From IMG/VR virus record IMGVR_UViG_2802429231_000009: a stretch of DNA of 35,292 bases; one strand, 5' to 3'. A model generated the notes under the pieces. The model was not told where the DNA came from, searched no databases, and was given only the letters and a program-made list of their open reading frames with translations. Source of the stretch: a virus (lineage: Duplodnaviria > Heunggongvirae > Uroviricota > Caudoviricetes). The position numbers were made by a program, and so were the translations under genes. This document shows, in pieces, positions 1,449-35,292 of the stretch; position 1 is the first letter of the stretch; each line of letters begins with the position of its first letter.

Positions 1449-2105
1449 CTATTTAACATACTTGACTGTTAAACTTATAATTTTACCAATTATTTCAATG
1501 TCTTCTATCTTGCATTCGAAGGCTCTGTTTCCACCCTCGACGAAGATTCTTCCACCGGGTAAACGAGTAATGTCACGGATCGTTATTTCGCCATCAATAC
1601 TTATTACCCATTTACCATCACGTATATCATCAAATTCTTTATCACAAATAAATTCAGAATTGTTATCTGTGATGACAAAAGGTTTTTTAAACGTAGAGGG
1701 TAGAAATCCCTTATCAAAAATATAAAAACCGTCTTTCTGCAATGCTCCATCAGACAATAAATATTTTTCTACTTCTATAGTATTTGTATTTGCTGATGCT
1801 TGCTTTGAACCATGCCCTGTTGTTAGCCAATTAAGCGAGGTGCCCGTTTCAAGGGCGCACTGGATTACCCAATCTGCTGGAAAAATATCACGCATATAGC
1901 GCGTTGCCATGGTGCTCTTAGAAACACCTAAATGATCACAGAGAGCCTGACGAGTACCGAACCCATATGCTTCAACTAAACGTTCTATGGCTTTCTTACC
2001 GCCGCTATTGAAATCCACAAGTCCTCCAAAGAAATCCAAAATTCGTTGACAGATTCCAAAAGCGATCTTAAAGTTGAACCAGAAGTGTTCTTTTGGAGCC
2101 TTCAC
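1449..2105 (-). CDS. cI: Phage immunity repressor, 186 CI-like (HTH)
   Basis: 218-aa ORF, GTG start, divergent from apl-like gene. HTH-like segment ERLVEAYGFGTRQALCDHLGVSKSTMATRYMR. Position between int and apl/cII as in 186. Confidence 0.65.
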   Translation of the reverse strand: MKAPKEHFWFNFKIAFGICQRILDFFGGLVDFNSGGKKAIERLVEAYGFGTRQALCDHLGVSKSTMATRYMRDIFPADWVIQCALETGTSLNWLTTGHGSKQASANTNTIEVEKYLLSDGALQKDGFYIFDKGFLPSTFKKPFVITDNNSEFICDKEFDDIRDGKWVISIDGEITIRDITRLPGGRIFVEGGNRAFECKIEDIEIIGKIISLTVKYVK

Positions 2106-2948: not shown

Positions 2949-3245
2949 ATGCTGACGAAAGAACCATCATTTGCATCGCTGCTGGTAAAACAAAGCCCGG
3001 CAATGCACTACGGTCACGGCTGGATCATGGGTGAGGATGGTAAACGCTGGCATCCGTGCCGTTCACAAGATGAATTGCTGTCTGAATTGACCACGGGGAA
3101 ACGGAGAAAGTCAAAATGTATGCAGCGGAAAGTGAAGTGGTTTATCAGTTTCGTTACAGAGGGGAGAGTTATTCAGTACCTGAAGATGATTTGCTCTGTT
3201 GTTATCCGTCGTTGTCGGGCGATGGCAGTTACTTTTTCACGCTAA
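2949..3245 (+). CDS. Hypothetical early protein (Fil-like position)
   Basis: ATG at 2949 with GAGGTG upstream. N-terminal part looks protein-like, C-terminal part is low-complexity and overlaps the 3116 ORF in another frame. Confidence 0.3.
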   Translation: MLTKEPSFASLLVKQSPAMHYGHGWIMGEDGKRWHPCRSQDELLSELTTGKRRKSKCMQRKVKWFISFVTEGRVIQYLKMICSVVIRRCRAMAVTFSR

Positions 3246-30424: not shown

Positions 30425-30906
30425 TGATGGTGCTGGGATTGTACGTGTTTATGCTGCGCACCGTGCCGTATCAGGAGCTGCAGTATCAGCGCAGCTGGCG
30501 ACATGCGGCTAACAGCCGGGTTAACCGACGCCCGTCAACGCAGTTTCTGGGACCGGACAACGACGTGCTGACGCTTTCTGGTGTTCTTATGCCGGAGATA
30601 ACAGGCGGCAGGCTGTCGTTGCTGGCACTGGAGCAGATGGCAGAACAGGGGAAAGCATGGCCTCTGATTGAAGGCAGCGGCACGATTTACGGCATGTATG
30701 TGATTGAGGGACTGAATCAGACTAAAACGGAGTTTTTCCGCGACGGTATGCCGCGCCGGATTGAGTTCACCCTGTCGCTCAAACGGGTGGATGAATCCCT
30801 GTCCGATATGTTCGGTGATCTCAGTTCGCAGCTGAATAATCTGCAGGACACGGCAACATCTGCATTAAGCGATATCAGTAAAACGGTGGGAGGGCTGCTG
30901 TCGTGA
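30421..30906 (+). CDS. U: Tail protein U (P2 gpU-like)
   Basis: 161 aa; start overlaps T stop. Confidence 0.8.
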   Translation: MMMVLGLYVFMLRTVPYQELQYQRSWRHAANSRVNRRPSTQFLGPDNDVLTLSGVLMPEITGGRLSLLALEQMAEQGKAWPLIEGSGTIYGMYVIEGLNQTKTEFFRDGMPRRIEFTLSLKRVDESLSDMFGDLSSQLNNLQDTATSALSDISKTVGGLLS

Positions 30907-32003
30907 ATTTCAGCTCTGAACTGCTTAACAAAGGCAACAAAACTCCGGCATTCAGCATCAGTATTGAGGGCAGGGATATCACCACTGTGCTGGATAACCG
31001 CCTGATGAGTCTGACGCTGACGGACAATCGGGGCTTTGAAGCGGACCAGCTTGATCTGGAACTGGATGATGTCGACGGAAAAATCGTGCTGCCGCGCCGT
31101 GGTGCGGTCATTACGCTGGCGCTGGGGTGGAAGGGGCAGCCGCTTTTCCCGAAAGGGGCATTCACGGTGGATGAAATTGAACACACTGGTGCACCGGACC
31201 GCCTGACTATCCGGGCGCGAAGTGCTGATTTTCGGGAAACGCTGAATACCCGTCGTGAAAAATCGTGGCACAAGACCACAGTTGGGGAAGTGGTGAAGGA
31301 AATAGCCGCGCGTCACAAGCTGAAGATGGCACTGGGTAAAGACCTGTCGGATAAGCCCGTGGAACATATAGACCAGACTAATGAGAGTGACGGCAGTTTT
31401 CTGATGCGGCTGGCGCGCCAGTACGGTGCTATTGCGTCGGTGAAAAATGGCAATCTGTTATTCATTCGGCAGGGACAGGGTAAAAGTGCTAGCGGTAAAC
31501 CACTGCCGGTGATCACTATCACACGTAAGGACGGCGACAGTCACCGCTTTACCCTGGCAGATCGCGGAGCTTACACGGGCGTAATTGCCAGCTGGTTGCA
31601 TACCCGCGAACCCGCGAAGAAAGAAAGCACCACGGTGAAGCGTAAGCGCAGGACTAAGAAGCAGAAGAAAGAGCCGGAAGCGAAGCAGGGCGATTACCTG
31701 GTGGGTACGGATGAAAACGTGCTGGTACTCAATCGCACCTATGCCAACCGGAGTAACGCCGAACGGGCAGCGAAAATGCAGTGGGAACGCCTGCAACGCG
31801 GTGTTGCGTCATTCTCGCTACAACTGGCGGAAGGTCGGGCAGATCTCTACACGGAAATGCCTGTGAAGGTCAGTGGCTTTAAACAGCCAATAGATGATGC
31901 GGAATGGACCATTACCACCCTGACGCATACTGTCAGCCCGGATAACGGTTTTACGACCAGTCTGGAGCTTGAAGTGAAGATTGATGATTTCGAAATGGAA
32001 TGA
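30903..32003 (+). CDS. D: Tail protein D (P2 gpD-like)
   Basis: GTG start overlapping U stop; 366 aa. Confidence 0.8.
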   Translation: MNFSSELLNKGNKTPAFSISIEGRDITTVLDNRLMSLTLTDNRGFEADQLDLELDDVDGKIVLPRRGAVITLALGWKGQPLFPKGAFTVDEIEHTGAPDRLTIRARSADFRETLNTRREKSWHKTTVGEVVKEIAARHKLKMALGKDLSDKPVEHIDQTNESDGSFLMRLARQYGAIASVKNGNLLFIRQGQGKSASGKPLPVITITRKDGDSHRFTLADRGAYTGVIASWLHTREPAKKESTTVKRKRRTKKQKKEPEAKQGDYLVGTDENVLVLNRTYANRSNAERAAKMQWERLQRGVASFSLQLAEGRADLYTEMPVKVSGFKQPIDDAEWTITTLTHTVSPDNGFTTSLELEVKIDDFEME

Positions 32004-34909: not shown

Positions 34910-35292
34910 TCAGGCGTCCAGATTCTCTTTCACCCATGCAGCAAAATCGGTATAGCCACCGATATGTTGCTGATCGACAAAAATCTGCGGCACGGTTTCT
35001 ACGGGTTTACCTGCCTTTTGTTGTAGATTTTCTTTAGTGATCCCTTCCGCACGAATATCTATACTCTAAATAATTCGAGTTGCAGGAAGGCGGCAAGCGA
35101 GTGAATCCCCAGTCACTTACATAAGTAAGTGACTGGGGTGAGCGAACGCAGTCGCAGCACATGCAACTTGAAGTATGACGAGTATACATACTGATACTGA
35201 AAATCATCGCGTTCATTGCTCAATTTCTCAGCCAGATCTTTTGCACGCACACAGTAAGGGCAACCCGGACGACCAAAAATAACGGTTTGCAT
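34910..35292 (-). pseudogene. grxA: Glutaredoxin 1 gene interrupted by an ERIC element
   Basis: Minus strand reads MQTVIFGRPGCPYCVRAKDLAEKLSNERDDFQYQYV, then a 125-bp insert with an in-frame stop, then DIRAEGITKE...WVKENLDA*. Start codon is the last 3 nt of the window. Confidence 0.65.
35059..35183. repeat. ERIC/IRU repetitive element (MITE-like imperfect palindrome)
   Basis: Contains GTGAATCCCCAG...ACATAAGTAAGTGACTGGGGTGAGCG matching the ERIC core, with imperfect terminal inverted repeats and TA flanks. Confidence 0.8.

Follow-up and report, generated by a model that had tools for sequence, protein, structure and literature searches.

The grxA locus and its inserted element

The window, that is, the whole stretch of 35,292 nucleotides that was analyzed, ends in grxA, the gene of glutaredoxin 1 (Grx1). 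The gene takes up the last 383 bases on the minus strand (34910-35292), with its ATG at 35292, the very end of the window, and its stop at 34910. The gene order ybjM - grxA - ybjC - nfsA is that of the orthologous region in the annotation of E. coli 042, and it is the same in the genomes that carry the insertion described here and in those that do not. In the annotated locus of E. coli 042, ybjM and grxA converge, and grxA is monocistronic; its interruption should thus have no polar effects on other genes.

Alignment with the grxA of E. coli 042 (WP_001195231.1) revealed a clean gain of 125 bases after codon 36 (GTA). Apart from this insert, the two halves of the gene, 108 nt upstream and 150 nt downstream, are collinear with the reference, and nt 1-107 are identical to it. 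The first 108 nt encode MQTVIFGRPGCPYCVRAKDLAEKLSNERDDFQYQYV and the last 150 nt encode DIRAEGITKENLQQ...KENLDA followed by a stop codon. The initial annotation had placed a 125-bp element with the core of an ERIC repeat within the grxA frame after codon 36, and the reference alignment bears this out. The length that it gave stands as well, and its coordinates, 35059-35183, are off by 1-3 nt, the G at 35059 being part of codon 37 (GAT). Because the flanking TA is duplicated, the insert can be placed equally well at 35060-35184 or at 35062-35186. In the related intact alleles of genomes L007, L008, and L011, the empty site has a single TA and reads GTA-GAT, while the carriers have a TA on both sides of the insert. 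Hence, the TA was duplicated upon insertion. The coordinates of all features are collected in Table 1.

Table 1. Features of the interrupted grxA gene and of the ERIC element (positions in the window)
Feature	Position	Strand	Remarks
grxA 5' segment	35185..35292	-	Codons 1-36 (MQTVIFGRPGCPYCV...QYQYV); CPYC active site at residues 11-14
grxA 3' segment	34910..35059	-	Codons 37-85 and stop; intact; frame +2 relative to the 5' segment
Premature in-frame TGA inside ERIC	35113..35115	-	Ends the 59-aa product
Second in-frame stop, TAG, at the ERIC/grxA junction	35059..35061	-	Used in sister genomes without the TGA
ERIC (IRU/RU-1) MITE	35060..35186	+	127 bp with the two terminal TAs; adds 125 bp to the empty site
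TA, copy of the duplicated target on the grxA 3' side	35060..35061		Empty-site comparison
TA, other target copy, within codon 36 (GTA)	35185..35186		Comparison with intact grxA
ERIC left terminal inverted repeat (TACTCTAAATAATTCGAGTTGCA)	35062..35084		Within inverted-repeat pair I1; pairs with 35162-35184 in the fold
ERIC right terminal inverted repeat (TGCAACTTGAAGTATGACGAGTA)	35162..35184		Inverted-repeat search and fold
ERIC central hairpin, perfect 14-bp arms (CCCCAGTCACTTAC / GTAAGTGACTGGGG), 4-nt loop	35107..35138		I2, 100% complementary; "TCA" variant

The ERIC elements of Enterobacteriaceae, also called IRU or RU-1, were reportedly described by Sharples and Lloyd in 1990, by Hulton et al. 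in 1991, and by Wilson and Sharp in 2006. We searched the window with a 44-nt core pattern made from what we take to be the sequences of the ERIC1R and ERIC2 primers. It matched once, at 35101-35144, with no mismatch, and never in 100 shuffled sequences; the ERIC2 primer site is exact in the insert. The conventional orientation of the element, that of the ERIC2 primer, is on the plus strand and thus antisense to grxA. Folded end to end, the element has a predicted energy of -54.7 kcal/mol (z = -7.78), and none of 200 shuffled sequences was as stable. When the collection of 5426 complete E. coli genomes was searched, all 127 nt aligned with E. coli ERIC copies at 125/127 identical positions (98.4%, E = 6e-55). 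The nearest intergenic copies, all at 125/127, lie between ybhJ and ybhI in E. coli SK1144/LS4, downstream of ilvN, and between yeiL and psuT. Similarity to the ybhJ-ybhI copy starts and stops exactly at TATACTC...GAGTATA, the unit being TA + 123 bp + TA. In this collection, the median number of ERIC matches per genome is 12, and the window has a single copy. In its length of about 127 bp, its core, its palindromic stem-loop, its terminal inverted repeats and TAs, and the duplication of its TA target, the insert is like the known members of the family, whose hallmarks are precisely 127 bp, terminal inverted repeats, a terminal TA, and a TA target duplication (PMC2759123, PMC2229807, PMC3184786). 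Judged by these features of its sequence, the insert is a canonical ERIC (IRU/RU-1) MITE. It differs from the habit of the family, which is not a structural criterion, in its location: the usual copies are found in transcribed intergenic regions, whereas this one lies in the middle of a conserved and well-characterized coding sequence.

The element is also recognized by an RNA family model. The covariance model of the Rfam family RF02818 (V_AS5, Vibrio RNA AS5) aligns over its full length (model positions 1-129) with 35059-35182, at 45.4 bits and E = 1.5e-8. This is below the gathering score of 96, which rules out membership, and nothing at this locus speaks for an antisense RNA gene. We do not propose an RNA gene at this site, since Rfam gave just this sub-threshold match and a chance-level match to P18. 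The V_AS5 match presumably reflects an ERIC-like repeat in Vibrio, and the family itself was possibly built on such a repeat and not on a dedicated antisense RNA.

Carriers of the insertion and their lineage

The insertion is not private to the source strain of the window. The exact 59-aa product of the interrupted gene is also encoded on an ENA metagenome contig (L002), whose DNA matches the window exactly across both junctions, with a single-base difference in ybjM. A look-up with the YbjM protein of the window led to four NCBI drafts (L005, L006, L009, and L010) with the identical insertion at the identical site; the accessions of these carrier drafts are GCA_019081145.1, GCA_015332285.1, GCA_053006925.1, and GCA_037034325.1, and SRR3987466, SRR8452353, and SRR29176808 are among the read sets of carriers. 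Three Logan contigs (L012, L013, and L014) hold the junction between the grxA 3' segment and ERIC, and break 25-29 nt into the repeat (locus 3082-3086). In such unitig assemblies the allele is visible just as a contig break in grxA, and searches based on genes would miss grxA::ERIC.

Over the 2512 bp of ybjL-ybjM-grxA, the carriers are 0-8 SNPs apart. They are separated by 61-69 SNPs from genomes that share their YbjM protein but have an uninterrupted grxA, and by 39 SNPs in 1670 bp from E. coli 042. The intact relatives include GCA_000768485.1 and GCA_002110175.1. None of the 5426 complete E. coli genomes has this or any other insertion in grxA. The best identity to these genomes was 97.9% for ybjL-grxA and 95.7% for the ybjC-nfsA-rimK region of carrier L006 (3300-5378). 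The YbjL protein of the window is the commonest E. coli allele (99,274 indexed blocks), with an intact grxA in all ten places listed.

The tightness of the carrier clade and the absence of the insertion from the complete E. coli genomes indicate a single, lineage-specific transposition that was inherited vertically. The simplest history is thus one insertion in the ancestor of the clade, followed by vertical descent. The initial annotation had taken the intragenic copy as a hint of recent mobility. The event is indeed lineage-specific and younger than the divergence from other E. coli, but it is recent in this sense only: the allele is fixed in a clade known from at least eight assemblies besides the window, with 0-8 SNPs per 2.5 kb of flanking sequence, and the element itself has diversified there. 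Judged by the identities given above, and with 2.7 kb of core chromosome in the window, the carriers may represent a divergent or cryptic Escherichia lineage, or the local region may have been imported by recombination.

We regard as unlikely the second possibility, in which the grxA::ERIC allele arose in another Escherichia species or clade and was brought in with its flanks by homologous recombination. It would account for a region that is unusually divergent from the complete E. coli genomes, on both sides of the insertion, and that yet encodes a common YbjL allele. However, the putative source did not appear among the GTDB species representatives, where we scanned for the exact 5' junction and for inserts of 110-138 bp between the grxA flanks, nor among the JGI metagenome contigs, where a gapped pattern for inserts of this size was used; both results apply to exact E. 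coli-like flanks, with distant genera outside the coverage of the patterns. An import would alter just the place of the event, not its nature.

Truncation of grxA and its consequences

As it stands, grxA is a pseudogene. The in-frame stop that the initial annotation had reported is the TGA within ERIC, and it closes a product made of 36 Grx1 residues and 23 residues encoded by the element. This 59-aa product matches the Pfam Glutaredoxin profile (PF00462) at positions 2-23 of 60 only, with 23.7 bits. The 49 codons after the insert continue unchanged, as had also been claimed: removing 125 nt gives an 85-aa protein with the full domain (profile positions 2-60 of 60, 53.6 bits). Hence, the encoded product does not have a full glutaredoxin domain, although its CPYC motif is present. 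As 125 = 3n+2, the 3' half of the gene is out of frame. Its frame contains a TAG located two codons ahead of codon 37 (D37), lacks any ATG, GTG, or TTG before the GTG at Val59, and shows no evident Shine-Dalgarno sequence; the sole ORF listed in it is a GTG ORF of 27 aa (34910-34993). With no start codon that could serve in the downstream frame, the production of Grx1 is almost certainly abolished, as far as the codons allow one to predict.

The two halves of the gene are otherwise little changed. The only non-synonymous change shared by all carriers is D47N in the 3' half (codon 47, AAT, at 35029), which four intact alleles (L007, L008, L011, and E. coli 042) do not have. It could result from relaxed selection after the inactivation, or it could be a mere polymorphism of the lineage. 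The undamaged state of the halves in every carrier fits a young pseudogene, yet it would also be expected of a sequence that is still useful.

We are highly confident that the locus results from the transposition of an ERIC MITE into the TA of codon 36 in the common ancestor of the carriers, a small and divergent lineage of Escherichia, with truncation of the gene as the outcome. The element would have inserted into the TA of the GTA codon, duplicating these two bases and lengthening the gene by 125 bp. Translation would then stop at the TGA met in the incoming frame, and the 49 C-terminal codons, having no usable start, would leave the cell with no functional glutaredoxin 1. This null allele would have been passed on vertically. 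To judge only from its footprint, the element would have been mobilized in trans by a transposase. The duplication of a TA is typical of enzymes of the IS630/mariner type. No transposase is encoded in the window, and none is known for ERIC (PMC2229807).

Loss of grxA is likely to have been neutral or mildly advantageous. E. coli has redundant disulfide reductases (Grx2, Grx3, and the thioredoxins), and it therefore tolerates this loss. In E. coli K-12, Grx1 re-reduces OxyR and so switches it off, and a grxA null would thus be expected to prolong the response to peroxide. Together, the redundancy of the reductases and the role of Grx1 as a reductant of OxyR make an effect that is neutral or mildly beneficial likely. 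A stronger version of this idea, in which ERIC is transposing now, or did so recently, in this lineage and the hit in grxA was kept because the loss of Grx1 is useful, seems doubtful to us. If active transposition were nonetheless true, the carrier genomes would be the place to seek the enzyme that mobilizes ERIC. The candidate would be a TA-targeting transposase, similar to those of IS630/mariner, with ends matching TATACTC...GAGTATA.

One may ask if the interrupted gene could still yield a working glutaredoxin, by translational bypass of the element, by re-initiation producing complementing fragments, or by a frequent and precise excision that would make the insertion a reversible switch. 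The undamaged halves in all carriers would agree with this, thioredoxin-fold proteins can reassemble from fragments, and a strong hairpin between direct TA repeats has a geometry that favors slippage deletion. Yet we find it very improbable. A ribosome taking off at GTA and landing on the GTA near the end of the element would meet TAG as the next codon, not GAT. Re-initiation would have to contend with the TAG ahead of D37, the missing start codons before Val59, and the missing Shine-Dalgarno sequence noted above. Bypass, re-initiation, and split-protein ideas were thus rejected on codon context. As for excision, repeats of two bases give very low rates, and a reverted empty site was found in none of the members of the carrier clade.

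Diversity of the element and comparison with known insertions

The element is not the same in all carriers. In the window, L006, and L002, it carries CAG-TCA-C...GGGGT; in L005, L009, and L010, it carries the canonical CAG-GAG-C...GGGGG, with an imperfect hairpin and without the TGA, so that the junction TAG ends a product of 77 aa (P0002). The TCA/T form completes the pairing of the central stem and gives rise to the TGA. The variant blocks are at 35107-35144 in the window and at about 3105-3142 in L005, L009, and L010, and the split of the carriers into TCA and GAG types agrees with the SNPs in their flanks. Among carriers, up to 6 of the 127 positions of ERIC differ, for at most 0.3% in the flanks, which makes the element around 15 times more variable. 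The same alternative states are found at other ERIC loci: TCA/T between ybhJ and ybhI, GAG/G downstream of ilvN, and GAG/T between yeiL and psuT. This recurrence suggests that the block differences in the interior of the element may have arisen by short-patch (ectopic) gene conversion between copies or by hairpin-templated correction, with the caveat that the interior of a repeat may be mis-assembled in drafts, above all at the G-run in L010.

We dropped the ybhJ-ybhI copy as the donor of the insertion, as the sister-type copy in grxA is equally close to the ones downstream of ilvN and between yeiL and psuT. No single locus stands out as the donor, since several of them share 125/127 positions with either the one grxA type or the other.

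The initial annotation had foreseen misassembly as an explanation that could undo its claim, and the idea that the assembler spliced into grxA an ERIC copy that belongs to another part of the genome, which could draw on the dispersed nature of the repeat and on the breaks of the three Logan contigs within it, is effectively refuted by the identity of both junctions in five other independent assemblies (four from NCBI and one ENA metagenome) and of the 3' junction in three further read sets, all from one tight clade, and by a repeat of 127 bp that is shorter than a typical read, so that single reads can span both junctions.

Elements of this kind, their preferred target, and copies that lie within genes have all been published, and the locus does not reveal a new mechanism. 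The initial annotation had called an intragenic ERIC unusual; such copies are rare, but they have already been reported (PMC2759123, PMC10969869). The part of PMC10969869 that cites Wilson and Sharp (2006) mentions strain-specific ERIC insertions in E. coli. We found no paper linking grxA with an ERIC insertion. Relative to the usual copies of the family, besides its location, the grxA copy of the window differs by its perfect hairpin, with TCA where the canonical sequence has GAG.

The closest known cases are the intragenic ERIC/RU-1 fusions ECA3499, YPO3245, PLU3667, SC2711, and STM0083 (Delihas 2007, PMC2759123). They share with grxA::ERIC the presence of the element within reading frames and the addition of ERIC-encoded residues to those of the host protein. 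In Erwinia, Yersinia, Photorhabdus, and Salmonella, where these fusions occur, they are mostly extensions at the 3' end or hypothetical ORFs of small size (PMC2759123). In contrast, grxA::ERIC is a mid-gene, frame-shifting, and clearly inactivating insertion in Escherichia, of which close relatives keep the empty site. Knock-outs of genes by other MITEs are also on record, as with MITEAba12 in the hns of Acinetobacter, and with RUP and Correia elements in transposase genes (PMC10969869, PMC2229807). In all of these, a non-autonomous element with terminal inverted repeats and a target duplication inactivates a gene. The difference is that a cognate IS transposase has been proposed or is known for MITEAba12 and RUP, whereas ERIC has none known.

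The grxA::ERIC allele is thus a clean and phylogenetically bounded case of ERIC behaving as a transposon, with a loss of function in a housekeeping redox gene as the outcome. It identifies an Escherichia lineage that is naturally null for grxA, and it can be typed by PCR, the ybjM-ybjC amplicon being longer by 125 bp. It also calls for caution in annotation: the "hypothetical proteins" of 59 and 77 aa are the front half of Grx1 fused to residues encoded by ERIC.

Most of the window is taken up by a prophage of the P2 family (about 2200-32400), which has a layout running from integrase to ogr, tail genes, and a gpD at 30903-32003. It lies between a gene of the TetR family (1449-2105, minus strand), which is probably ybjK/rcdA, and ybjL; the other genes of the window are ybjJ, ybjL, and ybjM. 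In the ranges tried, a search for att sites found the ends of the prophage to share no exact direct repeat of at least 12 nt. Over 83-84% of its length, the prophage is 95.7-95.9% identical to the Klebsiella phages KP12 and Kp4849-2, and about 770 complete E. coli genomes have a similar one at this site. The prophage is absent from the carriers L005, L006, L009, and L010 and present in L014, which indicates that it arrived after the ERIC insertion.
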